Assembly: GCA_964642815.1 (NCBI GenBank)
Contig: CAZXSA010000001.1
Location: 1 to 61,552 of the forward strand
Length of the DNA: 61,552 bases
Reading direction: 5' to 3'
Origin: an uncultured Planctomycetales bacterium
GTDB lineage: Bacteria > Planctomycetota > Phycisphaerae > UBA1845 > PWPN01
Positions 6,687-45,569 of the stretch are shown here, piece by piece; position 1 is the stretch's first letter; the number at the start of each line of letters is the position of its first letter. A model generated the notes under the pieces. That model did no database searches. It was not told the DNA's origin and saw only the letters and a list, made by a program, of their open reading frames with translations. The translations under genes and the position numbers were made by a program.

Positions 6687-6697
6687 GTTAATGACGG

Positions 6698-7126: not shown

Positions 7127-7130
7127 TTGG

Positions 7131-9147: not shown

Positions 9148-9211
9148 AAATGCCTTTGCTGGCTCGACGCCTCAGGGAGTCATCCTGCCCGGCGCGAACA
9201 ACCCCTGATCC

Positions 9212-26160: not shown

Positions 26161-28488
26161 ATGGTCGATCGGAAACCGTCATCCTCATATTCGCGGCCAG
26201 CCTCGGGCGGCGGCTCGCGCAAGGACGGACGCCCGAGCAGGCAGCGACCGCCTCGCCCCGCGCTTCCGACTCCGGAGAACGATCATAAGGAGACGCCACT
26301 ATTGCCGCCGGTTGATCCGGAACAAGCGGTCACCGTGCGGGCGGGCAGGGCGACGGCGCCTTGGGGGTCGATGAATCTATCGCTTGCGGGTTTGTCCGGA
26401 CTCATCGAGCCGTTGGCTATCCTCGTCGGGTTGGCCGCCGGCTGGCAGTTGTTCGGCATGCGGATGATCGTGGCGGCGGCGATGGATCCACTCCCCTCGA
26501 CCTCGATCATGGTAGTCGCCATCGCTTTGCTGGCCGCGGCTTTGGGACCTTGGTTTCCCGAACGGGTCATTCTATGGGTAACCCGTATGGTTACTCGACG
26601 GACCCAGAAGCACGACGGCCCGATCGGTGACGTGTCCGGCACGTTCTGGATGTTGCGGGCGGCGCGCGAGCGTGACCCGGCCATGCATTGGCTCGCCGTC
26701 TCCGTGCTATCCACCGTCGCCGCTCTGGCGGCTTTGCTCACCCTGGCCCTGACCCGGCCGTCTATTCAGCTTTACCACTATTTGCTGGAGCGTTTTTTCT
26801 GGACCAGCACGACCCTGGCCGTTCTGGAATGGACCGGCGTATCGCTTTTCCTTGGAGGTTCGTGGGCGTTAAATGGACTGGTGCTCTCCACCTTGTGGTC
26901 CGTCTGGGGCGTGGGGCGGGCCGCCTCGCGTCACTCGGCCGGCGTCCCCTCGGGCTTGATGATCGGTTTTGCTCTGGCGGCCTGGACTCATGAAGCCTGG
27001 GTCAGTGGCGGCTTGTCGGGTGGGCAGAGTTATATGCTCGGCATTTTACCAATGTTCATACTAGCCGGCGTGGCCGCCAAACGTTCGCAACAATTGGACC
27101 TGCCACCCCGCCAACCCCCCGTTTTGGATTCCGCTACTCCGGAGTTCAGCGCGGCCGCCGAAAGGATTATCTGGATATCCCTGGTCGCCTGGGGCGTAGC
27201 CACCGCGTGGGCGGTGCAGGGCTGGATGGCCTGTCGGGCGATCACTACACCGATTGGCTTGCCAACCCTTGCGACCGCCGGGTGTATCCTCGTGGTCGGG
27301 CTTGGTTTTCTCCTCGCTTCGTATAGAAGCCGTCATCACGACGGCACGGCCTCGGGTTGCGGCATGGCCTTGTGGGTTGCGGGACTGGGCATGGCGGCCG
27401 CGGCCACCAGCGTTGCTTTCTGGCCGACGGGGCATTGGGCGGGGCTGGTCCAGGCCCTCTGTCTGGGCTGGCCGACAGGATACGCGTTGCGCTATATTAA
27501 ACGTGCCTGGTTGGCCCGGGTGGGCAGTGAAACCCTGGGCTACGAGCAATTGCTCAGCGCCGTATTTGGCGGTCTGGGAATCGGCCTGCTTTCCGGCCAT
27601 TTCTGGGCAGGCCCCCAACTCGGCGCAATGGGTACGATCAGCGCCGGTTCACTGATGCTGATGGCCTGGGGCGGTTTGCTGCAAATCTACGTGAACGATC
27701 GGCCGCTGCGCATTCAGCATCAACGACTGGCGTTAGTGTTCGCCTCGCTGGCGGGGGCCATCGCCCTGCTGCCGGCCGATGCGCGCAGGTGGGTCGAATT
27801 TCGACGCGGGCTGCCCCAGTCCGTCCCGGCAACCGTGCAACTCGACTGGCTCGGGGAGACCGCCCCTTTGATGGGACGGCGGGTGGCCATGATCGGGATC
27901 ACCGCCGATGAGGCGTTGGCCTGGTGCGGTCCGCGGCCCGTGAGAGTGGAGGTCATGCCGTTGGCGCGTTCCTGGTCCTCCGCTCATCCGCCGGTACGTT
28001 TTTCGGATCAAGTAATATTATTCGCCGACAGCGCTTTTCGCCGTCTTCGCTACGAGCATGGCTTGTACGATCTGATCTATCAGCGCTGTCGATCCGCTCC
28101 ATGCCTGGCGCGTTTCGCGGAATATTCCGACGAATGGTTTGTTCTATTGGCCACCCGTGTCGCGTCGGGTGGCGAGGTGGTCGTGGATGTCCCCATTTCC
28201 GGGTTAAGCGCTGAAGCCCTCGCCGTCATCGCCGCCACGTTTCAGCAGGCCATGCCCGGCCCGACGGGATGGACGCTCGTGCGCGCCGAGCCGGCGTACC
28301 TTCGCCTTCGGGCCTTGGTGGGCGATCGGGAAAATCGAATCCTCCGTTTGGAAACTTCCTGGATGTCGCTGGACCGCCTCCTGACCGAGGATGTACGCCC
28401 TCATTCGATACTGCGGGACCGCGTGACCCCACGGCTCGCGCTCGATGAACTGAAATCCGCGGATTGGGAGAACTTGCTAAAACCCTGA
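26161..28488 (+). CDS. polytopic membrane protein with C-terminal spermidine-synthase-like (class I MTase fold) region; function unknown
   Basis: Arg/Pro/Ser-rich N-terminus, more than 10 hydrophobic segments, then VAMIGITADEAL...VRVEVMPL...YDLIYQR, which resembles the fused-MFS/spermidine-synthase family layout. A later start at MNLSLAGLSG is possible. Confidence 0.4.
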   Translation: MVDRKPSSSYSRPASGGGSRKDGRPSRQRPPRPALPTPENDHKETPLLPPVDPEQAVTVRAGRATAPWGSMNLSLAGLSGLIEPLAILVGLAAGWQLFGMRMIVAAAMDPLPSTSIMVVAIALLAAALGPWFPERVILWVTRMVTRRTQKHDGPIGDVSGTFWMLRAARERDPAMHWLAVSVLSTVAALAALLTLALTRPSIQLYHYLLERFFWTSTTLAVLEWTGVSLFLGGSWALNGLVLSTLWSVWGVGRAASRHSAGVPSGLMIGFALAAWTHEAWVSGGLSGGQSYMLGILPMFILAGVAAKRSQQLDLPPRQPPVLDSATPEFSAAAERIIWISLVAWGVATAWAVQGWMACRAITTPIGLPTLATAGCILVVGLGFLLASYRSRHHDGTASGCGMALWVAGLGMAAAATSVAFWPTGHWAGLVQALCLGWPTGYALRYIKRAWLARVGSETLGYEQLLSAVFGGLGIGLLSGHFWAGPQLGAMGTISAGSLMLMAWGGLLQIYVNDRPLRIQHQRLALVFASLAGAIALLPADARRWVEFRRGLPQSVPATVQLDWLGETAPLMGRRVAMIGITADEALAWCGPRPVRVEVMPLARSWSSAHPPVRFSDQVILFADSAFRRLRYEHGLYDLIYQRCRSAPCLARFAEYSDEWFVLLATRVASGGEVVVDVPISGLSAEALAVIAATFQQAMPGPTGWTLVRAEPAYLRLRALVGDRENRILRLETSWMSLDRLLTEDVRPHSILRDRVTPRLALDELKSADWENLLKP

Positions 28489-28785
28489 AAACACACAAGC
28501 AACCCGCGTGACGAACTCCCGTACGCTATTCCCGCGGTCCCTGCTTTGAAAGAAACATACCGCTCATACGCCGACTCTATGCCTGCCTGATAACCGACCC
28601 GCCACGGTCGTAATCGCAAGTTATCGGAGCATGGCCACGTCACCGTTGCCCCCTTGGGAGATGTAACAGAAGTCACCCTGGTTCCTTTCCGATACAGAGG
28701 GATGCCTCTTGTCCACCGGATTTGCATGATTTTGTCTCGGGCCAGGGTGTGCAAGATCGGTAATAAGCATGGATCTCCCGAACGT

Positions 28786-29256
28786 ATGACCACCACCAGT
28801 GTTCATCGCAGGCTTCTTTCGCACGGACTGACCATCGTGGAAATTCTCATCGTGGTCATCGTGCTGGGCATCGTGGCCTTCGCGGTGGTCCCGCGCTTCA
28901 GTAAGGCCGCGGGCGATGCCGAGGATATCCAACTGAAAAATCATCTCGAGGTCGTTCGCCGACAGATCGAGTTGTATCGCATCGAGCACGGCGGGCAATA
29001 CCCCACGGCGACAACCGAGGAAGAGTTTCTCGAGCAAATGCTTCAGCGGAATGAATCCGACGGTTCGGCCGCCAACGTGCCGTCTACGAATTCGGATCAC
29101 GGCCCCTATTTGCCGGATATTCCGATCAACCCCTACACGGGGGGAAAGAGGATCACCTGCGGCGGCCACCCGGGCGAGGTAGCCGGCGACTGGCATTACG
29201 ACCCGGTTACCGGCCATTTCCGGGCCAATCGCCCCGCCGAAAAGGTCCATTATTAG
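28786..29256 (+). CDS. prepilin-type N-terminal cleavage/methylation domain protein (type IV pilin / T2SS pseudopilin-like)
   Basis: Track ORF trimmed to Met45. MTTTSVHRRLLSHG|LTIVEILIVVIVLGIVAFAVVPRF is a class III signal with the conserved Glu at +5 of the mature end. Confidence 0.75.
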   Translation: MTTTSVHRRLLSHGLTIVEILIVVIVLGIVAFAVVPRFSKAAGDAEDIQLKNHLEVVRRQIELYRIEHGGQYPTATTEEEFLEQMLQRNESDGSAANVPSTNSDHGPYLPDIPINPYTGGKRITCGGHPGEVAGDWHYDPVTGHFRANRPAEKVHY

Positions 29257-29293
29257 TTTGCCGGCCTCACGAAAAACAAAATGATCGGGTTCG

Positions 29294-29332
29294 CCAGACC
29301 GTCAGGGGGGAACGGTCTGGCGTCCTGTTTTT
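29294..29332 (+). terminator. putative intrinsic terminator after the pilin gene
   Basis: 9-bp stem CCAGACCGT / ACGGTCTGG (29294..29302, 29312..29320), followed 7 nt later by TTTTT. The T-run is not directly adjacent, so confidence is moderate. Confidence 0.45.
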
Positions 29333-29654
29333 CTCCCCAACGACGATCATCCTGGGAGCATATCTTGCCGGCCGACGAAACAACGGCTTGGCCTACGCGC
29401 GCCGCGTCATCTGGACGGATAGCGTCTCGCCATTGAGTCAGGCCAACGGCAACAACCGCCTCGCGGTTATCCCGGACGTTTATTATGGGAACCTTTGTCG
29501 ATGAAGTCATTCGATAAAGCCTAATCCAATCAAGAGTTAAGGGGGCCCTCGGCGGCTCCGATACAAGGATAGCCCGTCTGGTCTTGCGCGCCCGGGGCGC
29601 ATGGCGGGTTGGTTTGCGGTCGGCGCATAACGCCGTCCGATCGAAGGGTGAAAT

Positions 29655-30791
29655 GTGGCTGCACCATTCCTACGGATACGCCGGCATGTCGGCCCCATCG
29701 GGCTCGATCTGGGAACCCATTTCTTGCGCATGGTCCAACTGGTCAATGAAGGCGAGCGTTTCGGGGTCGTGGGTTGCACGCAACAGATTGTCCCGTTGGA
29801 TATCAAATCCCGCGCCGAATATGAACTGATCGTCACGTCCAGCGTGACCCGCATGTTGGAGGAGGGACGTTTCGCGGGCCGCGAGGTCGTCACCGCGCTG
29901 GGCTGGAACGATCTGGAAATTCGTAACCTGCGAATCAACTCGACCGAACAGGAGGACATCGAGAACGAGGTCCGTCGCCAGGCGGAGGAACGCTTCGGCA
30001 TGGACCCGGTGGAGACGGAGTTTCGCTTCCTGCCGGCCGGCGATGTGCGGCAGGGAACGGATTTGCATCAGGAAGTGATTGTATTGGGCGCCGCTCGGTC
30101 AACGATCGAGGCCCATATCGCGCTGCTGGGCAAGCTGGGATTGAACCCGGTGGCCATTGACGCCGGGCCGTGTGCCCTGTTTCGAGGTTTCGAACGATTT
30201 CTCCGGCGCGACGAGGACGACCATCAGGTTCACGCTCTAGTGGATATGGGCTACGAGGCCACGCGGGTGGTCATGTCCCGAGGGACGGATTTGATATTGT
30301 TCAAGTCAATTCCGCTTGGTGGGCGGCATTTTGATCGCCTGTTGTGCGAGCAGCTCGATCTGAGTCGGTACGAGGCCTCCGAAATCCGCATGCGCGTTCA
30401 GGGACGCCGGAAGGATGGGGAAGCGGAGGGGCCGGAAGAAAGCGACCCTCCGCCCGAGAGCCTTCATCGAGCGGTGTTCGACGCATTGCGGCCGGCATTC
30501 GAGCAGATCGGCAAGGAGATCGCCTTATGCCTGCGCTATTGCTCGGCGACGTTCCGCGGGTTGCGCTGCGAGACGATCACGACGGTCGGCGGGCAGGCCG
30601 GCGATCAAGTCATGCGCGGATTTCTTGCCGACCAAGTGGGCCTGCCTTTCGAGGTGGGACGCCCGATGCGCAACATGATCCTGGATCGCGGCGGCCCCGC
30701 GCTGGACCGCCGGGCAAGCCAGCCGGAATGGGCTATGGCCGTCGGCCTGGCTTTGAAACCGCTGCATCGAACCGTTGAGGTGATGCGATGA
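29655..30791 (+). CDS. pilM: type IV pilus assembly protein PilM-like (actin-like ATPase fold)
   Basis: GTG start. IGLDLGTHFLRMVQL phosphate-1-like motif. Overall PilM length and pattern (VAIDAGPCALFRGF, ALVDMGYEATRVV). Confidence 0.8.
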   Translation: MAAPFLRIRRHVGPIGLDLGTHFLRMVQLVNEGERFGVVGCTQQIVPLDIKSRAEYELIVTSSVTRMLEEGRFAGREVVTALGWNDLEIRNLRINSTEQEDIENEVRRQAEERFGMDPVETEFRFLPAGDVRQGTDLHQEVIVLGAARSTIEAHIALLGKLGLNPVAIDAGPCALFRGFERFLRRDEDDHQVHALVDMGYEATRVVMSRGTDLILFKSIPLGGRHFDRLLCEQLDLSRYEASEIRMRVQGRRKDGEAEGPEESDPPPESLHRAVFDALRPAFEQIGKEIALCLRYCSATFRGLRCETITTVGGQAGDQVMRGFLADQVGLPFEVGRPMRNMILDRGGPALDRRASQPEWAMAVGLALKPLHRTVEVMR

Positions 30792-31339
30792 GGGAAATCG
30801 ATTTCTTACCGAGGAATTTTCGCCGAGCCGCCCGGTTACGGCAAACGCGTCGGCGACTGGCCGTTCTGGCCGGACTGGCGATGGTGTCCCTGGTGCTTCA
30901 TCTGACCTATGAAACGCGGGTGGACCGCGCCCTGGCGTCGTCGTCCGGTTTGTCCGGAGATCGTTTCGGTGACTTGGCGGCGACGGCGCCCCTGCTCGGC
31001 CCTGAACCGGCGAACTCCGACAAGCCAGCCGACCTCGACTCTCGTGTTGCCCGGGCGGAACAGGCCATCCTCCGCCTCATGAACAACGAGTATCAATTAC
31101 GCTGCATGTCTTTTGAAACCGGAAACAAAGTGGGCTCCGACGCGACCCTTCTCCATGGACGCATACAGGCTGTCGCGAAAAGTGAGTTGTCGGTCGGCAT
31201 CCTCATGGGCCGACTCGCGGCCTGTCCGTTCTTCAAGGAGATGCATCTGAATGAGCTACGGGAGGTCCGCGAGGCCGGTCGGCCAATGCGGGAATTTGAA
31301 CTGACTTGCACCTTGAACCTGGACGGGTTCTCGAAATGA
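30788..31339 (+). CDS. pilN: PilN-like bitopic membrane protein
   Basis: MREIDFLPRNFRRAARLRQTRRR, then a single TM (LAVLAGLAMVSLVLHL), as in PilN (INLLP-type N-terminus). 4-nt ATGA overlap with pilM. Confidence 0.6.
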   Translation: MREIDFLPRNFRRAARLRQTRRRLAVLAGLAMVSLVLHLTYETRVDRALASSSGLSGDRFGDLAATAPLLGPEPANSDKPADLDSRVARAEQAILRLMNNEYQLRCMSFETGNKVGSDATLLHGRIQAVAKSELSVGILMGRLAACPFFKEMHLNELREVREAGRPMREFELTCTLNLDGFSK

Positions 31340-32907
31340 TAGCCGACGAAAAGGTTGCCACGGGCATGCGCATGGCCGCGGAGCATCATCACGATCTCCT
31401 CAAAGGACGGGGCCTGATCGGGGCGGACGTCTCCAAGCCGGTGTTTTCCATTACCCGGCTGACCTATCTCACCCTGGGGCTGCTGGTTCTGGTGGCGGCG
31501 ACCTCGGTCGGCGGTATCTTCGGAATTATCCATAAGGGCGCGCCGCTCGAATATCTGGTGGTCTGGTGTGCCTGCGGTTCGCTGGTGGTCATGGCCATCG
31601 TCATGCTGCTGCTGGGCAAGTTCATGACCCAGCGCGCGCTGCTCGTCGTCGAGGAACGACTGCGTCGTCTGATTCGGGAGGACCGTCTGGACGCTTTGGA
31701 CGTTTCGGTCCCCGACGATCTGCAACCGGTCATGTCCGCCCTGAGCCAATACGTCGAACAGGTGCGCGAGCGCATGGATCGGCTGCGGGTCCGAAAAAAG
31801 GAATTGGACATCCAGATGCGGGCGGCCGAAACGGAGCGACGCAACAGCGAAGCCATCATTCTCAGCCTCAACGAGGCGGTACTGGTCATCGACGCGTTCG
31901 GCGATCTGGTTCTGGCGAACGCGGCCGCCGAGGAAATGTTTTCGTTTCAACTGGCCGCCCGTCGCCATCGGCCCTTGGAGCAAATCCTCGCGGACGGCTC
32001 CCTGGTCGATCTGATCAAGGCGGCGCGCGAGCAAACCGAGCGCGGTCCGTACCGACACGTGGAATACGCCGCCTGCCGTGACGGCCAGGGGCGGACCTTT
32101 CACATCACCCTGGCCCGGATGGCCGACCCCGAGGGCCGGCCGGGCGGCGTGGTGGCCATCTTTCATGATATCACCCACGAGCGCCAGGCCGCTCAGATCA
32201 AGGCCGATTTCGTCTCCGCGGTCTCCCATGAGTTACGTACCCCGCTATCCAGCATCAAGGCGTATATCGAGATGCTGCAAGACGGCGAGGCCCGCGACGA
32301 GACCGCCCGCCGTTCTTTCCTGCAGATCATCGCGGAGGAAACCGCCCGCCTGCAACGATTGATCGAGAACATTTTGAACATATCGCGCATCGAGTCCGGC
32401 CTGATCCAGGCCTGTCCGGAGTTGATCCAGCCTCAAACGGTGATTCGGACCATCCTGGATACACTTGCCCCGCAGGCCAGGGAAAAAAATGTCCGGCTGG
32501 AGGAGCATCTGGGCACCGGCCTTCCCTCCATCTGGGCCGACCGGGACATGCTCCACCGCGCGGTGCTCAACGTCATCGGTAACGCCTTGAAATACACGCC
32601 GACGGGCGGACGGGTTCGGGTGAGTACGGATGTGGACACCGAGCGAAATCACTACGTGATCACCATCGAGGACAACGGAATTGGCATCCCCACCGGGGAT
32701 TTGGATCGTATTTTCGACAAGTTCTATCGCAGCAAGCAAGCCACCGCGGTGGCCAAGGGTACGGGCCTCGGCCTGAACCTGGTCAAACATATCGTGGAAA
32801 GCGTGCACCAAGGCGCAATCTCCGTGACCAGCGAGCCGGGCGCGGGAACCAGCATGATTCTTAGATTACCTTTATCGCCGCAACCAACAACGAGGAACCA
32901 GCCATGA
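31336..32907 (+). CDS. sensor histidine kinase (two TM, PAS, HisKA, HATPase_c)
   Basis: Start set at Met11 of the track ORF so that its ATG overlaps the pilN stop (ATGA). H-box FVSAVSHELRTPLSSIKAYIEML, N-box VIGNALKYTP, G-boxes DNGIGIP and GTGLGLNLVKHIV. Confidence 0.85.
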   Translation: MIADEKVATGMRMAAEHHHDLLKGRGLIGADVSKPVFSITRLTYLTLGLLVLVAATSVGGIFGIIHKGAPLEYLVVWCACGSLVVMAIVMLLLGKFMTQRALLVVEERLRRLIREDRLDALDVSVPDDLQPVMSALSQYVEQVRERMDRLRVRKKELDIQMRAAETERRNSEAIILSLNEAVLVIDAFGDLVLANAAAEEMFSFQLAARRHRPLEQILADGSLVDLIKAAREQTERGPYRHVEYAACRDGQGRTFHITLARMADPEGRPGGVVAIFHDITHERQAAQIKADFVSAVSHELRTPLSSIKAYIEMLQDGEARDETARRSFLQIIAEETARLQRLIENILNISRIESGLIQACPELIQPQTVIRTILDTLAPQAREKNVRLEEHLGTGLPSIWADRDMLHRAVLNVIGNALKYTPTGGRVRVSTDVDTERNHYVITIEDNGIGIPTGDLDRIFDKFYRSKQATAVAKGTGLGLNLVKHIVESVHQGAISVTSEPGAGTSMILRLPLSPQPTTRNQP

Positions 32908-33293
32908 AAAGGATTCTGGTGGCCGACGACGAAACCCACATTCTTAATGTGGTGTCGATCAAACTCAGTAACGCCGGGTACCAGGTGGAGACGGCCGAGG
33001 ACGGCGCCGAGGCGTACCGCGCGGCCAAGGCCAATCCGCCGGATTTGCTGATTACCGATTATCAGATGCCCAACCTCAGCGGAGTGGAGTTATGCGCGAA
33101 ACTGGCGGCCGATCCGCCAACTCGGACGATCCCGGCCATATTGCTGACCGCCCGGGGTTATAGCATTTCTCCCCAGGACAAGGCCTCATCCGGCATCCGC
33201 CGGGTCATCGACAAGCCGTTCAGCCCGCGCGAGGTGTTGGCCTGCGTCGAGGAAATTCTTGCCGACATGCCGATGGCCACGGTCGGCGCTTGA
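32904..33293 (+). CDS. single-domain response regulator (REC)
   Basis: RILVADDE, phospho-acceptor context LLITDYQMPNLSG, and conserved K in IDKPF. ATGA overlap with the kinase. Confidence 0.85.
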   Translation: MKRILVADDETHILNVVSIKLSNAGYQVETAEDGAEAYRAAKANPPDLLITDYQMPNLSGVELCAKLAADPPTRTIPAILLTARGYSISPQDKASSGIRRVIDKPFSPREVLACVEEILADMPMATVGA

Positions 33294-34987
33294 AGAGGTG
33301 TTGCGTGAGCCGTGGGGCCCGATTGTTAAAGAACAAGGCGAGCGAAACGGAGCGAGTCTATTCCTCGGTTTTCCCTCGCTACGCCGAGCCGTGGGGCCGG
33401 CTGGGACTCTGGCTTTCGTTATGGGACGAGGCGGGCGAATGGGTCATATCCGATCTGCCCGGCACGGATCCGTTCTGGGTTACCCTGCGTAGACATGCCC
33501 CCCGATTGCTCGGCCGGATGCGGGACTTGGCCGGCTGCGCAGGACAGGCTCCGACTCCACTGGTCGAGCTTGAGGCGGGTAGTGGACTGCTGGCCATCGT
33601 GTTGCCCGTCCGCATGCGCGGAAAACCGCCGCACTGTCTGTTGGTCTGCGCCAAGACGACGGACTTCGGGGAACAGGAAAGCTTTTTCCGCTTCTGCGAC
33701 CGTCATGAAATGGATCCGATCTTTCTGCGTAAACTGTCCGAGCAGGTTCCCGCCTATTCCCTCGAAACCTTGTCCGCTTATGCGGGTATCCTCCAGCAGC
33801 AGATGGTCGATTTCGACGCGTCGCTCCGGGCCCGGGGCGACATTCATGACTTGTCCGATCAATTGGCCCGCGCTTACGAAACCCTCAGCCTGCTCTATCG
33901 GGTCAGCGGAGACTTGAGCCTTGCCCATCGGCCGCGGGCTTATCTGGAAAAACTCTGCCGTGAACTGCTCGGCGTTACCGTCGTACGCGGGTTTGCCGGC
34001 GTGCTCGAACCACCTCACGATCTGCCCCTGCCCCCCATGGTGGTCACCTCCGGCGAGCTCAACGTCGATGAGGCGGAAATCCTCAAGCTTTATCACCAAA
34101 TCGTAACCCAGCAGCGGACCGACCAGAGGTTTTGCGTAGTGAACCGCGTCCGCGACGATAAGGCCTATGCCTGGACCTCGGCCTGGCTGGAACAATTTGT
34201 CTATTTCCCGCTGGCCCGAGCGAACTATCGCTATGGCGCGCTCCTGGCCATCAATCAAATCAACGGAGATGATTTCGGCTCCGAGGAGGTTCAGCTTATT
34301 AATACGGTGGTCGAGCGCAGCGCGGCCTTTCTCGAAAACGTCCGTCTGTTCGACGACCTCGAGCAACTGTTCATGGGGATGCTTCACGCCCTGGTCAACA
34401 GCGTCGATGCCAAGGATCCGTATACCTGCGGCCATTCGCAACGGGTCGCCTGGTTGAGCCGGCACATCGCGGGACTGGCCGACATCCCCGAGCCGCAACG
34501 ACAGCGTGTCTACCTCAGCGGCCTACTGCACGACGTGGGTAAGATCGGCATTACCGACGCCCTGCTAGGCAAGACGGGGCGGCTGACCGCCGACGAATAC
34601 GAGGAGATCAAGCGCCACCCGGTGATCGGGGCCCGTATTCTCGAGGGAATGAAACAGGTCGAGGATTTGGTCCCCGGAGTGCTCTACCACCATGAACGAA
34701 TCGACGGCAAGGGCTACTCGGCCGGATTAAGCGGCAACGGCATTCCCTTATTCGGCCGCGTGGTCGGGCTCGCCGACAGCCTGGACGCCATGACCACCAA
34801 TCGGACCTATCGCGCCGCCCTGCCGCTTCAACTGGCCATCGCGGAAATCCGCCGGTTTTCAGGCACTCAATTTGACCCGCAACTGGTTGACCTCCTGCTC
34901 CAGGATGACTGGGCCACGCTGTTCCGCAAGCTGCCGGCCTCCAACCGTCCGCCTCACGGACAGGGTGTTTTCGAAATCGGGCATTGA
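33290..34987 (+). CDS. GAF-like + HD-GYP domain protein (putative c-di-GMP phosphodiesterase)
   Basis: HSQRVAWLSRHIA, LLHDVGKIG and YHHERIDGKGYSAG (GYS variant of GYP). TTG start overlapping the REC stop (alternative GTG at 33305). Confidence 0.85.
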   Translation: MKRCCVSRGARLLKNKASETERVYSSVFPRYAEPWGRLGLWLSLWDEAGEWVISDLPGTDPFWVTLRRHAPRLLGRMRDLAGCAGQAPTPLVELEAGSGLLAIVLPVRMRGKPPHCLLVCAKTTDFGEQESFFRFCDRHEMDPIFLRKLSEQVPAYSLETLSAYAGILQQQMVDFDASLRARGDIHDLSDQLARAYETLSLLYRVSGDLSLAHRPRAYLEKLCRELLGVTVVRGFAGVLEPPHDLPLPPMVVTSGELNVDEAEILKLYHQIVTQQRTDQRFCVVNRVRDDKAYAWTSAWLEQFVYFPLARANYRYGALLAINQINGDDFGSEEVQLINTVVERSAAFLENVRLFDDLEQLFMGMLHALVNSVDAKDPYTCGHSQRVAWLSRHIAGLADIPEPQRQRVYLSGLLHDVGKIGITDALLGKTGRLTADEYEEIKRHPVIGARILEGMKQVEDLVPGVLYHHERIDGKGYSAGLSGNGIPLFGRVVGLADSLDAMTTNRTYRAALPLQLAIAEIRRFSGTQFDPQLVDLLLQDDWATLFRKLPASNRPPHGQGVFEIGH

Positions 34988-35020
34988 CAACGGACCCAAA
35001 GCCCCCAAGAATCCCACTCT

Positions 35021-35953
35021 ATGCCCGTGGATTTACGCCATCCCCCCGTGTTTCGTTACTCCGGACCAATCATCGACGCCCATTGCCATTTCACCACCCC
35101 CGACGCCACGGAACGAATGATCCAGGCGGGAACCCTGTATGGAGTCTCCCAATGGGTCGGGATTTGCCGGGTTGAGGAAGTGCCCGCCTTTCGCGAACGG
35201 TTCGGCGACCGGGCGGCATTCACGATATGGATCGATCATGAACTGGCGACCGACTCGCCCGCCTTTTTGCGAACCCAACTGGACATCATTCATCGTGCAG
35301 TCGAGGCCGGCGGCCGCTGCATGAAATTCTGGTACAAACCGGAATATAACCACCGAAGCGGGCTCTTTTTCGACCACCCGTGCCTGGATCCGATTTTCCG
35401 GACCATCGAGGAGGCCGGCCTGGGCGTGCTGGTGCATATCGCCGATCCCGACGTCTGGTGGCGGCACCGCTATTGTGACCCGGCCAAGTACGAGGCCAAG
35501 CGGTTCACCTTTCGCCAGTTGACCAATACCCTGGAACGTTTCGGCCGGTTGCGAGTGCTCGTCGCCCACTTGGGCGGCTGGCCGGAAAATCTTCCTTTTC
35601 TTGAGAATTTGTTGAACCGGTATCCCAACTGCCATCTGGACACGTCGGGTACGAAATGGATCGCGCGTGAATTGTCCGCCAAACCGGCCGAGTCCCGCGA
35701 TTTTATCATTCGCTACGCCGATCGGCTGCTGTTCGGCAGCGACCTCGTGGCCTGGGAGCACGCCGACCTTGATCACCACTGTTCGCGCTACTGGGTACAT
35801 CGCCATCTTTACGAACAACGATACAGCGTGCCTTCGCCGATAGAAGACCCGGATGCCGTCGGCCCGGTTCAGGTGACCGGCTTGGATTTACCCGATTCGG
35901 TTTTGCGAAGGCTTTATCTGGAAAACGCCCGCCGTTTTTATCGGCTGGCGTGA
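35021..35953 (+). CDS. amidohydrolase-family metal-dependent hydrolase (TIM barrel)
   Basis: IIDAHCHF N-terminal His pair, internal VLVHIAD and VAHLGG, and C-terminal LLFGSD, as in Amidohydro_2 proteins. Confidence 0.65.
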   Translation: MPVDLRHPPVFRYSGPIIDAHCHFTTPDATERMIQAGTLYGVSQWVGICRVEEVPAFRERFGDRAAFTIWIDHELATDSPAFLRTQLDIIHRAVEAGGRCMKFWYKPEYNHRSGLFFDHPCLDPIFRTIEEAGLGVLVHIADPDVWWRHRYCDPAKYEAKRFTFRQLTNTLERFGRLRVLVAHLGGWPENLPFLENLLNRYPNCHLDTSGTKWIARELSAKPAESRDFIIRYADRLLFGSDLVAWEHADLDHHCSRYWVHRHLYEQRYSVPSPIEDPDAVGPVQVTGLDLPDSVLRRLYLENARRFYRLA

Positions 35954-36320
35954 AGACCAACTCACAACCGGCCCCCTATCCGTACTGTCCACCGGCCCCG
36001 CGCAAGCGACGCCATCGAATTCGCGACCTGCAATGCACTCACGGCCTCATGGCCCCAGCGGGGCCATGAAATGTAGCCGCGGGCGGAACGCAGCCCGTGT
36101 ACTCGCGGGCGAAGCATAGCCCGTGGTAGGCAATTTGTTCCTTCCTTGCCCTGAAAGGGCAAAGGAAACTTTGGCCAAGAGTGGCATGGGCAGGCCCTTG
36201 TCGCGCGATAGCGGGACAAGGATTTGCCCGTGCTTTCGCGGCCAGAGCACAATTCGGATGGTGGCATGGCTCAGGTCCGGTACTCCGGATTCCGCCCGTG
36301 TGATACAGTAAAGCCCACGT

Positions 36321-36441
36321 TCATCCTTCATCCCTCATCCCTCATCCTTCATCCCTCATCCTTCATCCCTCATCCCCCATCCCTCATCCCTCATCCCCCA
36401 TCCCTCATCCTTCATCCTTCATCCCTCATCCTTCATCCTTC
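36321..36441. repeat. heptanucleotide microsatellite (TCATCCY)x17
   Basis: 17 head-to-tail heptamers read directly: cct ccc ccc cct ccc cct ccc ccc ccc ccc ccc ccc cct cct ccc cct cct endings. Two units are the variant CCATCCC. Confidence 0.9.
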
Positions 36442-36535
36442 TTACAAGGCCCCCCACTGCTTGACGGTCGTAAGCCCATCCGGTACCTTACGATATAGTC
36501 CCTCAAGGCAACCCGATCATTGACGGAATGCCTGA

Positions 36536-36619
36536 GCCCGGGTGGCGGAACTGGCAGACGCGCATGGTTGAGGGCCATGTAGCCGCAAGGCTGTGGAGGT
36601 TCGAGCCCTCTCCCGGGCA
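36536..36619 (+). tRNA. tRNA-Leu (anticodon GAG), type II with long variable arm
   Basis: Manual fold. Acceptor GCCCGGG/CCCGGGC, D arm GCGG...CGC, anticodon stem CATGG/CCATG with loop TTGAGGG, long variable arm TAGCCGCAAGGCTGT, T arm GGAGG-TTCGAGC-CCTCT, discriminator A. Aligns position by position with E. coli tRNA-Leu. Confidence 0.9.
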
Positions 36620-36628
36620 TCCTCAATA

Positions 36629-36655
36629 ACCCCCTGATCCGATCGGGGGTTTTTT
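36629..36655 (+). terminator. putative intrinsic terminator after tRNA-Leu
   Basis: ACCCCC...GGGGGT stem (36629..36634 / 36645..36650), followed directly by a T-run (36650..36655). Confidence 0.55.
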
Positions 36656-36745
36656 GCGTTTTACAGCGTATACCATGCCGCCGCTCTTGAGTCCGGCCCA
36701 AACCTCAAGCTCCGTACCCATAGCCCAAACCCATAGTCCCGAATT

Positions 36746-37248
36746 CAATCCCAACGGGATTGCATATCCCAGCCCAGGGTCGCGGCGTAGCCGCCACCCT
36801 GGGAACCGTACGTCGCACCACCCCTCAACCCCAACGGGGTTGCGTATTTCCCGGACGCCGGACCCGCCGCCCCATCGACGCAACCCCGTTGGGGTTGTCA
36901 TGGTGGTTAATGCCACCATTACCCAGGGTAGCGACTGCGCCGCAACCCTGGGCTATGTTACGTAGCCCCTACGGGGCAATATCAACGCCGCATCACCCCG
37001 CCAATCCCAAAGGGATTACGTATCCTAGCGCCCAAGGTTGCGGCGCAGCCGCTACCTTGGGAAACCGATCATACACCATATCATCAATCCCAAAGGGATT
37101 GTTTATCCTAGCCCAAGGTTGCGGCGCAGCCGCTACCTTGGGAAACTGCCAATCCCAACGGGATTGTGTACAATAGCCCAGGGTCGCGGCGCAGCCGCCA
37201 CCCTGGGTCATAGAGGTTGTAAACATATTTTCAACCCCAACGGGGTTG
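36746..37248. repeat. array of REP-like composite palindromic elements
   Basis: Short hairpins CAAYCCC-AAN-GGGRTTG at 36746, 36827, 36881 (inverted, GTT loop), 37003, 37085, 37150 and 37232. Long hairpins CCCARGGT-N-GCGGC-NNN-GCCGC-N-ACCYTGGG at 36773, 36922, 37031, 37112 and 37177. One more short hairpin lies at about 37728, after the RAYT gene. Confidence 0.8.
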
Positions 37249-37270
37249 CGTTGATAAAGAGACAGACCCG

Positions 37271-37726
37271 ATGCCACAATCATTGTCGGCCGTTCATATT
37301 CATTTAGTGTTTTCAACGAAAGATCGCGAGCCCTTCTTGCGGGATATGGAAATCCGAACAGAGATGCATGCCTATTTAAGCGGGATATCGAAGAAGTTAG
37401 ATTGTATACCCGTAATCGTGGGGGGCACCGAAGATCATGTCCATCTTTTATGCCGATTGGCCCGGACCATCACCCAGGCCGATTGGGTTAAGGAAGTTAA
37501 ACGAGTTTCCAGCATCTGGATCAAACAACGTGACTCGGCGTCATCAGCGTTTGCCTGGCAGGGAGGATATGGAGCGTTTTCGGTCAGCACATCGGCCATA
37601 GACCAAACCTGTGCATACATCAAAGGTCAGCCGGAGCATCACCAAAAACAAACCTTTCAAGACGAATACCGGGCATTTCTCCGTAAACATAACATGGAAT
37701 GGGACGAACGATTTGTATGGGAATGA
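37271..37726 (+). CDS. REP-associated tyrosine transposase (RAYT)-like Y1/HUH protein (IS200-like fold, COG1943-type)
   Basis: SAVHIHLVFSTKDREPFL, HUH motif in EDHVHLLCRL, and Tyr context WQGGYGAFSVS, which is homologous to WARGYCVSTVG of the IS200 TnpA at 6698..7126. Flanked by REP-like hairpins. Confidence 0.75.
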   Translation: MPQSLSAVHIHLVFSTKDREPFLRDMEIRTEMHAYLSGISKKLDCIPVIVGGTEDHVHLLCRLARTITQADWVKEVKRVSSIWIKQRDSASSAFAWQGGYGAFSVSTSAIDQTCAYIKGQPEHHQKQTFQDEYRAFLRKHNMEWDERFVWE

Positions 37727-38294: not shown

Positions 38295-39353
38295 ATGAAA
38301 ATTGGACTCGGTTTATATCGGCAGATGCTGAATCGGGATCATTTCCGTTTTGCCCGGCAGGCCGGGTGTACGCACATCGTGGCCCATCTATTGGACTACC
38401 GGAAGGATCAATTTCTGCATCCTGATCGTCGTCCGCTCGATCCGGCCAACCCCAAGGGTTTGTGGACGGATGAGTGCCTGGCAACCCTCAAGGCCGCGGT
38501 CAATGCCGAGGGGCTGATTCTGGAGGCGATCGAGAACTTCGAGCCGGCCCACTGGTCGGACATCCTGTTGGACGGTCCACGAAAGAAAGAGCAATTCGAG
38601 GATATCAAAACCATGATCCGCCGGGTGGGCAAGGCGGGGATTCCCATCATCGCCTATGATTTCAGCATCGCCGGGGTATGGGGCCACATTCAGGGTTCCT
38701 GGGCCCGCGGCGGCGCGACCGCGGTCGGATTCAGTCAGAAGCACGGCCCGAGGGAAACGCCCATCCCCAAGGGCGAGGTCTGGAATGTCATCTACGATCC
38801 GCACGCGCCACCCGGTGACATCGGCGAGGTGACTTCCGAGCAGATCTGGCAGCGTTACACGGATTTTCTCAAGGAAGTCGTACCCGTCGCCGAGGAGGCG
38901 GGCGTACGCCTGGCCGCTCATGCCGACGACCCGCCGGTTCCCGTACTGCGCGGCACGGCCCGCCTGGTGTACCAGCCGCACATGTATCAACGCGTTCTCG
39001 ATATCGTGCCCAGCCCGGCCAACGCTCTGGAAATCTGCATGGGCACGACTCAGGAAATGTCCGAGGGCGACATTTATGAAGTCCTGGCGACCCACAGCCG
39101 ACAAAAAGCCATCGCTTACATACATTTCCGCAACGTGCGCGGCAAGGTGCCCGAATATCGCGAGGTTTTCCTCGACGAGGGCGATATCGACATGATCAAG
39201 GCCCTCCGAGTCCTGCGGGACAACGGTTACGACGGCCTGCTCGTTCCCGACCATACGCCGCACATGACCTGCGCCGCCCCCTGGCACGCCGGGATGGCCT
39301 ACGCCCTGGGCTACATGCAGGCGGCCTTGCGGATCGTCGAAGAGTATAAATAA
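38295..39353 (+). CDS. uxuA: mannonate dehydratase (UxuA family)
   Basis: FLKEVVPVAEEAGVRLAAHADDPPVPVLRG, IAYIHFRNV and LLVPDHTPHM align with E. coli UxuA blocks ([47 protein letters not shown]). Confidence 0.8.
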   Translation: MKIGLGLYRQMLNRDHFRFARQAGCTHIVAHLLDYRKDQFLHPDRRPLDPANPKGLWTDECLATLKAAVNAEGLILEAIENFEPAHWSDILLDGPRKKEQFEDIKTMIRRVGKAGIPIIAYDFSIAGVWGHIQGSWARGGATAVGFSQKHGPRETPIPKGEVWNVIYDPHAPPGDIGEVTSEQIWQRYTDFLKEVVPVAEEAGVRLAAHADDPPVPVLRGTARLVYQPHMYQRVLDIVPSPANALEICMGTTQEMSEGDIYEVLATHSRQKAIAYIHFRNVRGKVPEYREVFLDEGDIDMIKALRVLRDNGYDGLLVPDHTPHMTCAAPWHAGMAYALGYMQAALRIVEEYK

Positions 39354-39480
39354 GAAACGAAAGTCTTTATCGGCGGCGGGGGGGCGGCGCGGGAAAAGTA
39401 ACGAATAGCGTAACACCGAATTTCCTGAACGGGCCATTCGATGCGGCATTACGTCCCACCTGACTCTTCCGCCTACATAG

Positions 39481-40431
39481 ATGCCAAACATGACCGGCTC
39501 AATTTTCGATATCCAGCGTTTCTGCGTGCATGACGGACCCGGTATCCGCACGACGGTGTTCCTCAAGGGCTGTCCCATGCGCTGCCCCTGGTGTCACAAC
39601 CCGGAGGGCGTGCGGCCGGAGCCGCATCTTTCGTTTTCCCCCGACAAGTGCATCGGCTGCGGCGCGTGCTTCCGCATCTGCCCGCGCGGAGCGCACGTGG
39701 ACAAAGACGGACATCATGCTATCGACCGCGAGAAATGCGTGGTTTGCGGATCGTGTGCCAAGGAATGCTTCGCCGGCGCGCTGGAAACCATCGGTCGCGA
39801 AGCAAGTATCGATGAGATCATCGCCGAGGTTGCCGCCGACCGGGCTTTCTACGATACCTCCGGAGGCGGCATGACCCTCAGCGGCGGCGAGCCGCTTTAC
39901 CAGCTTGACTTCTCGACCGGGCTGCTGGCCCGCGCCAAGGAACAAGGTATTCATTGCTGCATCGAGACCTGTGGCCACGTGCCTTACGAGGCGTTCGAGC
40001 GGGTCATACCGAAGGTTGATCTTTTCCTCCACGACATCAAGGAAATGGACGACGCTCGGCATAAGGCCCTGACGGGCGTATCCAATGTTCGGATTCTGTC
40101 GAACCTGCGGCGGCTGTACGACACCGGCGCGCACATTCGCATCCGCGTCCCTCTGGTTGGCGGCTATAATGATTCGATGGAAAATCTGGACGCGCTGGTC
40201 GAATTGGCCGGGTCGATGCCTAGAATCGAAGGTGTCGAGGTATTGCCGTATCACGGCCTGGGCCTGTCCAAAGCGCAACGCATGGGCATCGCCGACGTGG
40301 CCGAGCCCCGGCCGTACGCTCCGGCAGTCGAGACCCTGGCTCAATGGATAAACCGGCTGCGCAATGGAGGAGTCAACGTGATGAACACCGAGGTTGAGGC
40401 CGTCCCGGCCAACAGAAGCGGGAGCCCATGA
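39481..40431 (+). CDS. glycyl-radical enzyme activating protein (radical SAM, with two ferredoxin-like clusters)
   Basis: FCVHDGPGIRTTVFLKGCPMRCPWCHNPE (CX3CX2C), plus CIGCGACFRICP and CVVCGSCAKEC. Confidence 0.85.
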   Translation: MPNMTGSIFDIQRFCVHDGPGIRTTVFLKGCPMRCPWCHNPEGVRPEPHLSFSPDKCIGCGACFRICPRGAHVDKDGHHAIDREKCVVCGSCAKECFAGALETIGREASIDEIIAEVAADRAFYDTSGGGMTLSGGEPLYQLDFSTGLLARAKEQGIHCCIETCGHVPYEAFERVIPKVDLFLHDIKEMDDARHKALTGVSNVRILSNLRRLYDTGAHIRIRVPLVGGYNDSMENLDALVELAGSMPRIEGVEVLPYHGLGLSKAQRMGIADVAEPRPYAPAVETLAQWINRLRNGGVNVMNTEVEAVPANRSGSP

Positions 40432-42716
40432 ACAGTCGCCCTGACAAATTGCTTTCGCCCCGCGTCGCGAGACTTCGCTCCACCGCCCTTCAACCCAAGG
40501 CGTTGAGCGAGTGGATCGAGGTCGAGCGTATCCGTGCCCGCGCCGCCAAACGTGCCGTCGATTGGTCGGCCATGCGGCGGCAGGCGGAGTTGTTTTGCGC
40601 CGTCCTCGCCGAGTTGCCGATCCGCATTGAGCCGGATGAGTTGATCGTCGGCAGCCAGGACTGCTGCTTCGCGAAGACTTATGACCTTTATGCGGACGGC
40701 GTCGAACACAGCCTTGCCGAACGGACACCGGAAGATGTGCGGGCGTACTGGGCGACCGACCCGTACAACGTGAAACTTGGCAGGCTGCTGACCGCGGAAC
40801 AGGTGGCCGCACAGAAAGAGAACGTCTGCATCGGCAAGCGGGTCAGCGCCCACGCGATCCCCGCCTTCGGTATGGTTCTTCGTCATGGTTTGTTTTATGT
40901 TATCGAGCGCGCACGGCAGGGCCTCTTCCAACCGGCCGACGACCGGAAACGCCTGCACGATCCAGACGATTTCTACCGGGCGGTCATCGAAAGCTGCGGA
41001 TCCGTCATCCATTTCGCCGAGCGCTTCGCGGCCCTTGCCGACCGCCTGGCGGAGAAGGAGCTCGATCCTGTTCGAGCGGAGGAACTGCGCGCAATCGCCG
41101 CTATCTGCCGCCAAGTGCCCGCGCGACCGGCGCGGACATTCCGCGAGGCGCTGCAATCGTTCTGGTTCTGTTACCTCGCCATGACCATCGAGCAATCGCC
41201 GAACGCTTACGCCTTCAGCGTCGGCCGTCTCGACCAGTGGGCGTGGCCTTTCCTCGAAACCGATCTCAACACCGGCCGCATCACGAACGACGAGGCACTG
41301 GAACTGATCGAGTGCCTTTGGCTCAAGTTCGTGGTCGGGCCGGAATGTTGGGCCGTGTCGCAAAACATCATGATCGGCGGGGTCACGGCCGAAGGCGACG
41401 ATGCGTGCAACCCGTTGACCCTGTTGTGCCTGGAAGCAACCCACCGCCTGCGTACGGCGCAGCCCTCGGTAGCCGTCCGCATCGCGCCGGAATCTTCGCC
41501 GAAACTGCTGGAAAAGGCCGTCGAGGTTCTCGCCCGCGGCATGGGCATACCGGCCATACATAATGACGCCACGGTTATCCCGACGATGCGGTCAATCGGT
41601 TATACGGAGGCCGATGCGCGGAACTATTGCATCGCCGGGTGTCAGGAATTCGTCGCCGAGGGGGCGGACAACTCGCGGACCACGGCCGGCAAATTCAATC
41701 TGCTCAAGTGCCTCGAACTGGCCCTCAACGACGGCGTATCGACCATCGGCGGCAAGCGTCTTGGCCCGGCAACGGGCAAGCCGGAAGCATTTGTCAGTTA
41801 CGAAGACGTTTGGCTCGCCTTCCGCACGCAGGTCACGCATTTCGTCGATATGATGGTCGATGCCCACAGCCGCGCGGATCTGCTCATCGCCGCCGAAAAG
41901 CCGGTCCCCTTCCTCTCCGGCCTGATGGGCGACTGTCTGGAAAAAGGCTTTGATTTCCGCTCCGACGGATCGCGATACAATTTCAGCGGGTGCCTCGTCC
42001 ATGGCCTCGGCAGCTCGGCCGACGCCCTCGCGGCGATACGAACGCTGGTCTTCGAGCGCCGGGTCGTCAATATGGCGGAATTGGCCGACGCCTTGCGGAC
42101 GGATTTTGCCGGCCGGGAATTGTTGCGCCAACGTCTGCTTAACGGCGTACCGAAATACGGAAACGGCGATCCCGAGGTCGACCACATCGCGGCCGAGGTG
42201 TTCGCGTTTACGACCGAAGCAATTCAATCGCGGCGTAATGCGTGGGGTGGTGCATGGCGGGCGGGTTTCAACACGCCGTCCACCCACGTTCATTACGGAC
42301 GCACGACCGGAGCCACGCCCGACGGTCGCCATGCCGGCATGCCGATGAGCTACGGCACCGGGCCGGCGGATGGCCGCGCGAAGCAAGGACCGACGGCCGT
42401 GGCTCGGTCGGTAACCATCTTCGACCATAAGCTCGCCACGCTCGGTACGGACCTGACCTTCTCGTTCCACCCGACGGTCGTCAACGGACCCGGCGGTCGC
42501 GCCCGACTGGCCGCCTTCGTGCGTACCCTGCTGCATCTCGGCGCACATCATTTCCAGATCAATATCGTCAGCGCCGAAGCCCTGCGGGCGGCGCAGGATC
42601 AGCCCGAGGAATACGGCGATCTCCTCGTCCGCGTACACGGTTATAGCACCCGATTCGTCGCCCTCGAGCGCTCGATCCAGGATGATCTGATCGCCCGGCT
42701 CGAGAGCTTTGGATAA
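40428..42716 (+). CDS. glycyl radical enzyme, PFL2/dehydratase-like clade, substrate unknown
   Basis: ATGA overlap with the activase. PARTFREALQSFWFCYLAMTIEQS block. Catalytic loop IAGCQE (Cys405 at 41640..41642, Glu at +2). Glycyl motif RVHGYST (Gly738 at 42639..42641). Confidence 0.85.
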   Translation: MNSRPDKLLSPRVARLRSTALQPKALSEWIEVERIRARAAKRAVDWSAMRRQAELFCAVLAELPIRIEPDELIVGSQDCCFAKTYDLYADGVEHSLAERTPEDVRAYWATDPYNVKLGRLLTAEQVAAQKENVCIGKRVSAHAIPAFGMVLRHGLFYVIERARQGLFQPADDRKRLHDPDDFYRAVIESCGSVIHFAERFAALADRLAEKELDPVRAEELRAIAAICRQVPARPARTFREALQSFWFCYLAMTIEQSPNAYAFSVGRLDQWAWPFLETDLNTGRITNDEALELIECLWLKFVVGPECWAVSQNIMIGGVTAEGDDACNPLTLLCLEATHRLRTAQPSVAVRIAPESSPKLLEKAVEVLARGMGIPAIHNDATVIPTMRSIGYTEADARNYCIAGCQEFVAEGADNSRTTAGKFNLLKCLELALNDGVSTIGGKRLGPATGKPEAFVSYEDVWLAFRTQVTHFVDMMVDAHSRADLLIAAEKPVPFLSGLMGDCLEKGFDFRSDGSRYNFSGCLVHGLGSSADALAAIRTLVFERRVVNMAELADALRTDFAGRELLRQRLLNGVPKYGNGDPEVDHIAAEVFAFTTEAIQSRRNAWGGAWRAGFNTPSTHVHYGRTTGATPDGRHAGMPMSYGTGPADGRAKQGPTAVARSVTIFDHKLATLGTDLTFSFHPTVVNGPGGRARLAAFVRTLLHLGAHHFQINIVSAEALRAAQDQPEEYGDLLVRVHGYSTRFVALERSIQDDLIARLESFG

Positions 42717-45078: not shown

Positions 45079-45569
45079 AGACCGCTCCACTCGACCGTCC
45101 GCCGCCGCTCGATATCCTTGGACAGCCGCTCGTAACGCAGGAAGGCAAAAATAGTTATATCCCGAACCCATCAACGAAAATCGCCCCTGGTTGGACATGA
45201 GCCATCGACCTTGGTCCTAGGGTAAATACCTATCACGTATTCATTGTTTTGAATTCAAGCTTCGTCATCAGTAAGCGATAATAGAAAGGGTGAAGCAAAG
45301 GGCCTTTTGGGCAACGAGTCTTTGGCCCTTATTGGGTACTGGTTTTTTCATTAAACAAGGCCGTATTCTCAGCTCTATTACGTGCTGCTGGAATTTGGGC
45401 ACATGAGTGGGCGTTGGGCCATCTTCCGCGTAAGCGAAAGGATGGGGTGGGTCGGTTGCGCGCCTGGTGCGGCCATCCGGCCCGCGATGTTCGATACCCA
45501 ATGAGATACGGGAAGCAAAGGTATGGTCCCTGCGCCAGGGGTCCGCGCACTATCTGGGAGGTCATGCAC

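Follow-up and report, generated by a model that had tools for sequence, protein, structure and literature searches.

A reduced type IV pilus-like gene cluster of Phycisphaerae that keeps pilM and pilN next to a kinase, receiver and HD-GYP cassette

How do pilM and pilN, two genes of the type IV pilus machine, come to stand at the head of a row of cyclic di-GMP (c-di-GMP) signaling genes, with pilO, pilP and pilQ missing? The question is raised by a locus at positions 29,655 to 34,987 of contig CAZXSA010000001.1 from an uncultured Planctomycetales bacterium of the Phycisphaerae (assembly GCA_964642815.1); the whole analysed stretch of 61,552 nucleotides is called the window below. Counting the pilin gene directly upstream, six co-directional genes lie in this region, encoding a pilin, PilM, PilN, a histidine kinase with two transmembrane (TM) segments and a PAS domain, a stand-alone receiver and an HD-GYP protein with tandem GAF domains. 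A preliminary description, made from the DNA letters alone, had read the last five as one unit in which PilM and PilN are placed to provide the input to the kinase. Profile matches in Pfam and NCBIfam, together with reading of the sequence, bear out the gene content and order that it gave:

29655..30791, + strand: PilM-like protein of the actin-fold ATPase family (PF11104, 68.7 bits; cut-off 27)
30788..31339, + strand: PilN-like bitopic protein (PF05137, 26 bits; cut-off 22.8)
31336..32907, + strand: membrane histidine kinase (PAS_4 41.9, HisKA 71.9 and HATPase_c 106.6 bits), with its start perhaps at ATG 31366
32904..33293, + strand: stand-alone, CheY-like receiver of 129 aa (PF00072, 80.1 bits)
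33290..34987, + strand: predicted HD-GYP phosphodiesterase of 560-565 aa (HD_5, PF13487, 117.7 bits), with its likely start at GTG 33305

Comparison of gene orders makes it near certain that this locus is the relic of a larger Phycisphaerae pilus cluster from which genes have been deleted. With moderate confidence, we favour the reading that a reduced pilus cluster has retained its signaling cassette and that PilM and PilN survive as partners of that cassette. The flanks were mapped by tblastn and Pfam in related genomes and then in 24 named loci on genome contigs; these named loci belong to metagenome-assembled genomes (MAGs) that come largely from digesters and wastewater and whose labels are mostly Phycisphaerae, Phycisphaerales, Sedimentisphaerales, Tepidisphaerales or Planctomycetota. 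Across 41 related genomes, orthologues of the window PilM are 31-85% identical to it and form a score class clearly apart from the paralogues. The cassette of kinase, receiver and HD-GYP genes follows the pilM orthologue in 20 of the 23 informative Phycisphaerae loci, showing that the order is conserved in relatives, and the pilM orthologue and the cassette co-occur in 20 of the 41 genomes, with mismatches in only 2 + 2. The tie between a pilus machine and a c-di-GMP cassette that had been proposed for the window is thereby upheld, and it is well supported by these gene arrangements that the link is not accidental.

Most relatives have four genes separating pilN from the kinase gene: pilO (PF04350, 46.7 bits), a gene in the pilP position for a small T2SSB-like bitopic protein, a secretin gene (670-720 aa; PF00263, 126 bits) and, alongside it, a gene for a TPR protein. 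The relatives thus share the canonical order of pilO, pilP-like gene, secretin and TPR (pilotin-like) gene with the pilMNOPQ operon of Pseudomonas aeruginosa, Myxococcus xanthus and Thermus thermophilus. After the HD-GYP gene, full clusters continue with STAS, PilB, PilT and PilC genes (L078, L066/L080, L061 and L062). The PilB of these relatives matches T2SSE with 446 bits and MshEN with 64 bits, and its N-terminus fits the MshEN motif KVGQILLERGLVTGEQIEQALAEQ. As judged from this architecture, the kinase-receiver-HD-GYP trio is a predicted signaling cassette housed within an entire type IV pilus-like cluster, for which we found no description in the literature searched. The full ancestral cluster would have comprised (a membrane protein gene), one or more pilin genes, pilMNO, the pilP-like gene, the secretin and TPR genes, the cassette, the STAS gene, pilB (MshEN), pilT and pilC. 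One of the full clusters also carries, upstream of pilM and after two minor pilins with N-methyl motifs, a gene for a 570-aa Laminin_G_3 (ConA-like lectin) protein (L078:7369-9081), possibly a carbohydrate-binding subunit of the pilus tip.

In the window, the kinase gene directly follows pilN, and pilO, pilP and the secretin gene are not in their canonical position. When the PilO, PilP-like, secretin and TPR proteins of the relatives were searched against the whole genome by tblastn, only secretin paralogues at 28% identity and generic TPR matches were returned, and a search of the genome with PF04350 (PilO) gave zero matches. The lack of pilO, pilP and pilQ noted in the preliminary description therefore stands: none lies in the locus, the genome contains no orthologues of the cluster's copies elsewhere, and none was found hidden in or fused to these open reading frames (ORFs). 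A relocated motor was considered as well and rejected, the best matches to PilB, PilT, PilC and STAS being 30-49% identical, which is the level of paralogues. PilB orthologues (54-100% identity) are confined to genomes whose cluster retains the secretin, and the best PilB match in each of the four focal-genus genomes reaches only 43-44%, the level of paralogous ATPases. By these comparisons, pilO, the pilP-like gene, the secretin, TPR and STAS genes, pilB, pilT and pilC have been deleted in the focal genus and not moved. This absence is not a native design; it is derived by deletion from an ancestral full cluster.

The reduction has taken more than one form among the mapped loci:

pilMN-only: the window, L056, L057 and G003; separately L065
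pilMNOP without secretin or TPR: L064/L044
pilMN with secretin and TPR, without pilO or pilP: L058, a closed chromosome with gene calls checked

Judged by tblastn alone, locus L046 follows the pattern of L058, except that no pilN match was obtained. In a tree of concatenated PilM, kinase, receiver and HD-GYP sequences, the focal genus, including the deep-branching G003, forms one clade (support 98) adjoining L058, whereas L065 nests with a support of 100 among full and MNOP forms. These placements indicate that the pilMN-only state arose at least two times. The pilMN-only derivative is a new arrangement, all parts of which are of known kinds.

Do the two remaining pilus proteins still look like PilM and PilN? 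Homology of the window PilM to PilM proteins of known structure extends along its whole length (2YCH_A, E 4e-19, residues 9-369; PilM of 3JC8, E 6e-16; also 5EOU), and the protein scores 95 bits against the stricter NCBIfam model TIGR01175, under the cut-off of 133. There are three PilM loci in the genome, making the window pilM a paralogue of the other two. One of these, the G000:C62 locus (L004:1883-13025), contains the gene of a PilM of 712 aa that carries a long extension at its C-terminus and is separated by three ORFs without Pfam matches from a 1185-aa secretin with N-terminal TPR repeats. Within the focal genus, the ratio of non-synonymous to synonymous substitution rates (dN/dS) of PilM is 0.07-0.13 at a dS of 0.7-1.7, and in a genus with the full cluster it is 0.056. 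PilM is as constrained as the signaling genes and under strong purifying selection. In the deep-branching G003, PilM is only about 52% identical and is present as an open C-terminal fragment at a contig end; pilN is intact in this genome, and the kinase gene is open up to the contig end.

PilN has kept the N-terminal PilM-binding motif MREIDFLP, followed by a basic stretch and a single TM helix, and the motif is preserved as M(K/R)E(I/L)DFLP across PilN orthologues. The C-terminal alpha-beta core (residues 80-176) is modelled by AlphaFold2 (AF2) with a predicted local distance difference test score (pLDDT) above 90. In place of the periplasmic coiled coil there is a disordered stretch, with a pLDDT below 50 for residues 56-77 and agreement from the alignment; the coiled coil is likewise missing in other PilO-less lineages (L065, L058). 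A Foldseek search with the PilN model returned PilO, PilN and PulM among its matches with weak E-values of 0.01-0.05, so that the main grounds for placing it in this fold are the Pfam match and the alignment. The dN/dS of PilN is 0.27-0.35 within the genus and 0.14 in the full-cluster genus, i.e., PilN is partly relaxed yet not neutral. A separate pattern was seen in genus g6 (L064/L044), which has lost the secretin and TPR genes: PilM, PilN, PilO and the PilP-like protein show raised dN/dS values of 0.27-0.58 and the cassette genes stay at 0.07-0.12, the low divergence making the ratios noisy.

The five genes from pilM to the HD-GYP gene had been described as translationally coupled through four overlaps of 4 nt. 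The overlap strings are present as given, ATGA at 30788, 31336 and 32904 and TTGA at 33290. Those at pilM/pilN and kinase/receiver are solid, and ATGA is found at both junctions also in the congeners L056 and L057; those at pilN/kinase and receiver/HD-GYP hang on doubtful start codons. The congener kinases can start only at an ATG matching window position 31366, about 25 nt past the pilN stop, so that a start at ATG 31336 is possible but not conserved among orthologues. For the HD-GYP protein, the database gene call of 560 aa corresponds to GTG 33305, which lies 11 nt past the receiver stop and has a GAGG Shine-Dalgarno sequence 6 nt upstream. Orthologues begin there as well, which together with this start makes the TTGA overlap doubtful. 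ATGA is the commonest type of overlap in bacterial operons and unremarkable by itself. The tightness of the unit does not suffer from these corrections: every spacer from pilM to the HD-GYP gene is at most 26 nt, and a terminator scan within the cluster found no convincing one. Judged by this layout, pilM, pilN and the kinase, receiver and HD-GYP genes likely form a single operon. A look-up of sequencing runs returned a single DNA run, from wastewater, and no RNA run. A scan for sigma-70 promoters performed no better than on shuffled sequences and gave no + strand site upstream of pilM.

The kinase reads, in order, as a cytoplasmic tail, TM1, a loop, TM2, a long helix, PAS, HisKA and HATPase, with the H, N, G1, F and G2 boxes intact. 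TM1 lies at about residues 44-66 and TM2 at about residues 77-97; the alignment shows TM2 to be well conserved and the intervening loop to span about 10 residues, as the preliminary description had seen. Its further assumption that a kinase of such minimal topology relies on an accessory membrane protein does not carry over to this kinase, as a cytoplasmic PAS domain is present at residues 172-283 (PF08448, 41.9 bits; PF00989, 40.6 bits). Intramembrane-sensing kinases of the BceS/LiaS type share the two TM helices and the very short loop, but they have no cytoplasmic sensory domain separating the membrane from the DHp domain, as the PAS domain does in the window kinase. The best NCBIfam matches are PnpS, WalK and PhoR, all under their cut-offs. 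An assignment as PhoR/PnpS orthologue was rejected (PnpS, 297 against 400 bits; TIGR02966 PhoR, 235 against 334) for a gene that is syntenic with pilus genes; the kinase is PhoR/PnpS-like in architecture without being an orthologue of these proteins. The dN/dS of the kinase within the genus is 0.15-0.20.

The receiver is indeed a stand-alone protein, as had been claimed, consisting of a single domain whose acidic pocket, phospho-acceptor Asp, Thr and Lys are intact (ADDE, ITDYQMP, LLTARG and IDKPF); its dN/dS within the genus is 0.07-0.10. The HD-GYP protein is modelled by AF2 with a pLDDT of 81.5 as two N-terminal GAF/PAS-like domains joined via long helices to the catalytic domain. Foldseek returned PmGH (4MCW) as the best match to this model (E 4e-18 over 366 columns), with further fold matches to the tandem-GAF PDE2/5/6, the DosS GAF domain, PA4781 and DvhD, so that AF2 and Foldseek agree on the GAF-like N-terminus proposed earlier. 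No metal ligand is missing (GHSQRV, LLHDVGK, RHP, HHE and ADSLDAM), and none varies among the orthologues; the dN/dS is 0.12-0.16 within the genus. NF053512, a family of REC-HD-GYP proteins (NosR), matches the receiver and the HD-GYP protein separately, under its cut-off. In L053 and L054, the receiver and HD-GYP genes overlap without an adjoining kinase gene, which supports the receiver working with the HD-GYP protein. In these two loci and in L049, both genes directly follow the TPR gene, with no kinase gene between.

The signature motif of the HD-GYP protein deviates in part of the focal genus. As noted in the preliminary description, GYP reads GYS (residues 474-476) in the window, and we found the same in two congeners; G003 gave no read-out. 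All 20 readable orthologues outside the genus have GYP, among them L065 of the other pilMN-only lineage. The Tyr of the GYP motif, which binds a phosphate of c-di-GMP (10.1101/2021.11.05.467447), remains in place; the substitution concerns the Pro. The genomes bearing GYS are also genomes that have lost the whole machine.

Taken together, these features suggest how the locus may work. The kinase would be anchored by its two TM helices, would sense via the PAS domain and/or its membrane part and would phosphorylate the receiver. The receiver would in turn control the HD-GYP enzyme, like a split RpfG, and the enzyme would lower c-di-GMP, which is made in this organism as indicated by six GGDEF genes in the genome. 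A c-di-GMP phosphorelay of kinase, receiver and HD-GYP protein is likely. Ancestrally, the cassette would have tuned the MshEN-PilB motor of its own cluster. This motor target would be gone in the focal genus, and, since the cluster's PilB has been lost, the output of the cassette would have to reach other c-di-GMP receptors. PilM and PilN would have been kept as the cassette's membrane-anchored partner, be it as input, as scaffold or as localiser. PilM and PilN probably now have a role beyond pilus building, and the chances that they are functionally coupled to the cassette appear about even. That they have been exapted, in the focal genus and independently in a second Phycisphaerae lineage, as a non-pilus input or scaffold of the kinase-receiver-HD-GYP pathway is possible, and we propose this more specific form only tentatively.

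Cross-talk between pilus machines and c-di-GMP is an active question in surface sensing, with PilY1/PilO-SadC, FimX-PilZ-PilB and MshE as examples. The window shares with the pilMNOPQ operon the PilM homology and the motif, TM helix and core of PilN; it differs by having no pilO, pilP, pilQ or TPR gene and no pilB, pilT or pilC of its own, by a PilN without coiled coil and by the kinase, receiver and HD-GYP genes coming right after pilN. In P. aeruginosa, the bitopic alignment-complex protein PilO contacts the TM region of the c-di-GMP enzyme SadC and tunes c-di-GMP (bioRxiv 10.1101/2020.10.17.343988), a precedent for PilMNO proteins as signaling partners. The Pseudomonas partner, however, is a diguanylate cyclase that is encoded elsewhere, and the pilus machine is intact, whereas in the window a predicted kinase-receiver-HD-GYP phosphodiesterase pathway is genetically joined to pilMN and the machine is gone. 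Helicobacter pylori keeps orphan PilM, PilN and PilO as a structural cage around the flagellar motor (PMC10823254). There, as in the window, PilM and PilN are kept although the other components of a pilus machine are missing, a situation that implies exaptation; H. pylori has kept PilO, whereas the window has lost it and has its genes tied to a two-component/c-di-GMP cassette. RpfC/RpfG and other REC-HD-GYP systems, as well as PmGH (4MCW), have the same metal ligands, control by kinase and receiver and, for PmGH, a resembling GAF-like N-terminus; in contrast to RpfG-type proteins, the window has the receiver as a separate gene, two GAF/PAS-like domains and the GYS motif. Finally, ATPases of the MshE/PilB type are controlled by c-di-GMP through MshEN (PMC5013675, PMC6957770). 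In the full-cluster relatives, the cassette sits just upstream of such an MshEN-PilB, which would offer a direct route from the HD-GYP enzyme to pilus extension, whereas the focal genus lacks that PilB and has only paralogous ATPases with imperfect MshEN-like motifs.

Upstream of pilM lie three further features:

26161..28488, + strand: polytopic membrane protein of 775 aa, without a Pfam or NCBIfam match
28786..29256, + strand: type IV pilin/pseudopilin-like gene, GspG-like, with the class III signal HG|LTIVE
29296..29335, + strand: terminator-like GC-rich hairpin (at about 29296-29322) and T-run downstream of the pilin gene

The pilin scores 41 bits against TIGR01710 (GspG) and 35 bits against ComGC, both under cut-off. 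Its orthologues sit upstream of pilM in most relatives; in G002 the orthologue is unlinked, and neither G003 nor G004 yielded one. That the pilin gene has a terminator of its own, as had been suspected, was substantiated by a strong hairpin with the stem GCCAGACCGTC/GACGGTCTGGC, then GTCCTGTTTTTCT, located after the gene. A pattern-based terminator scan did not pick it up, but RNAfold did, with -29 kcal/mol for 29257-29345. Orthologues of the 775-aa protein were found upstream in L058, L060, L061, L064, L065 and L066 (tblastn synteny, 33-47% identity); it is a conserved neighbour of the pilin and pilM genes within the family and probably lies outside the signaling unit.

Several observations weigh against the favoured reading. 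The assembly is a MAG of 503 contigs that is 92% complete, and the absences rest on the agreement of four congeneric MAGs. A kinase with its own predicted PAS sensor needs no accessory input. PilN is about twice as relaxed as in the full-cluster genus and has lost its coiled coil, which could reflect slow decay. In L055, L067 and L068, the TPR gene is directly followed by STAS and PilB genes with no cassette, and, conversely, in G015 (98% complete; L082, C82), where the kinase, receiver and HD-GYP genes (5734-9310) lie at the edge of a contig, the whole genome is without a PilM orthologue, so that the cassette is apparently able to exist without PilMN. In terms of gene content, machine and cassette are separable both ways and neither is absolutely dependent on the other. 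The G015 locus is perhaps a cassette-only stage of the same reduction. The cassette without PilM in G015 and the machines without cassette in other lineages would also fit a reading in which PilM and PilN serve another type IV pilus or type II secretion system-like machine in trans, their adjacency to an independently signaling cassette being historical. The genome has about ten T2SSE-family ATPase matches and four secretins but only three PilM loci, and some machines may thus be without a PilM of their own. Nevertheless, we regard service in trans as rather doubtful: the other two PilM loci have their own PilM, the C62 copy clustering with the secretin three ORFs downstream; the window PilN lacks the PilO-pairing coiled coil in a genome without a Pfam PilO, which makes normal service in an alignment complex unlikely; and none of the independent reductions (MN-only twice, MNOP, and MN with secretin) has physically separated pilMN from the cassette. 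The last point, together with the precedent of PilO and SadC, favours functional coupling.

If PilMN and the cassette are coupled, the contact need not be the one proposed in the preliminary description, in which PilM docks on the N-terminus of the bitopic PilN and PilN feeds the two-TM kinase via TM-TM contact. The topology of the kinase (two TM helices parted by about 10 residues, the second well conserved), the position of pilN immediately or closely upstream of the kinase gene in all reduced forms and the retention of the TM helix and PilM-binding motif of PilN despite the decay of its coiled coil are all consistent with such an input, and the binding of the PilO TM helix to the TM domain of SadC provides the precedent (bioRxiv 10.1101/2020.10.17.343988). 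In the full cluster, however, four to five genes part pilN from the kinase gene and the adjacency is therefore secondary; moreover, the kinase has its cytoplasmic PAS domain, and G015 has the cassette without PilMN. We therefore consider this contact unlikely. More improbable still is that the kinase monitors the pool of pilin in the inner membrane and that PilMN are bystanders. The pilin gene with its own terminator directly upstream would suit this idea, but no orthologue was detected in either of the pilMN-only genomes G003 and G004, the one in G002 is unlinked, and the window kinase has two TM helices against six in PilS. Precedents are the sensing of PilA by PilS in Pseudomonas (PMC6058289) and the path from PilA to PleC to c-di-GMP in Caulobacter (PMC7196804). 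Lastly, pilM and pilN could be functionless, decaying remnants carried between a promoter and a useful cassette, as the relaxation of PilN relative to the full-cluster genus, the loss of its structural segment and the PilMNOP dN/dS values of 0.27-0.58 in the secretin-less genus g6 would suggest. This is hardly credible given that PilM, at a dS of 0.7-1.7, has a dN/dS as low as that of the cassette genes, that none of the four genomes of the genus shows an interrupted reading frame in pilN or in the sampled pilM region, which in G003 is only the C-terminal fragment, and that the PilM-binding motif of PilN is conserved.

By our favoured reading of a reduced cluster with PilMN as cassette partner, Phycisphaerae write a signaling cassette into the operon of the pilus machine itself, and the window locus represents a natural deletion experiment: PilM, PilN and the cassette have stayed under selection after the loss of the pore, the periplasmic parts and the motor, an outcome reached at least two times. 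The experiment narrows the possible contact between machine and signal to PilM/PilN. The five-gene unit is thus a minimal system for asking whether alignment-complex proteins drive a kinase/phosphodiesterase pathway. If exaptation is true, pilus hardware became a dedicated component of c-di-GMP signaling; if PilMN are dispensable, the locus amounts to a pilus cluster in decay, its c-di-GMP module orphaned.

A scan for riboswitches and other RNA elements found none in the 398-nt spacer between the pilin gene and pilM or in the rest of 28300-37400. The same scan returned, both downstream of the unit, a tRNA at 36536-36619 and one sub-threshold small RNA match, Acido-Lenti-1-like, at 36922-36978. 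In the repeat-rich spacer that follows an amidohydrolase gene, 37271-37726 is occupied by an IS200/Y1-transposase-like gene (PF01797). Further along the window, 38295-42716 holds a UxuA-like gene, then a radical-SAM activase and then a 762-aa glycyl radical enzyme (pyruvate formate-lyase-like, 523 bits), and 45414-48041 encodes an 875-aa chemoreceptor with a CZB zinc-binding domain, a Cache domain and a methyl-accepting chemotaxis protein signaling domain.

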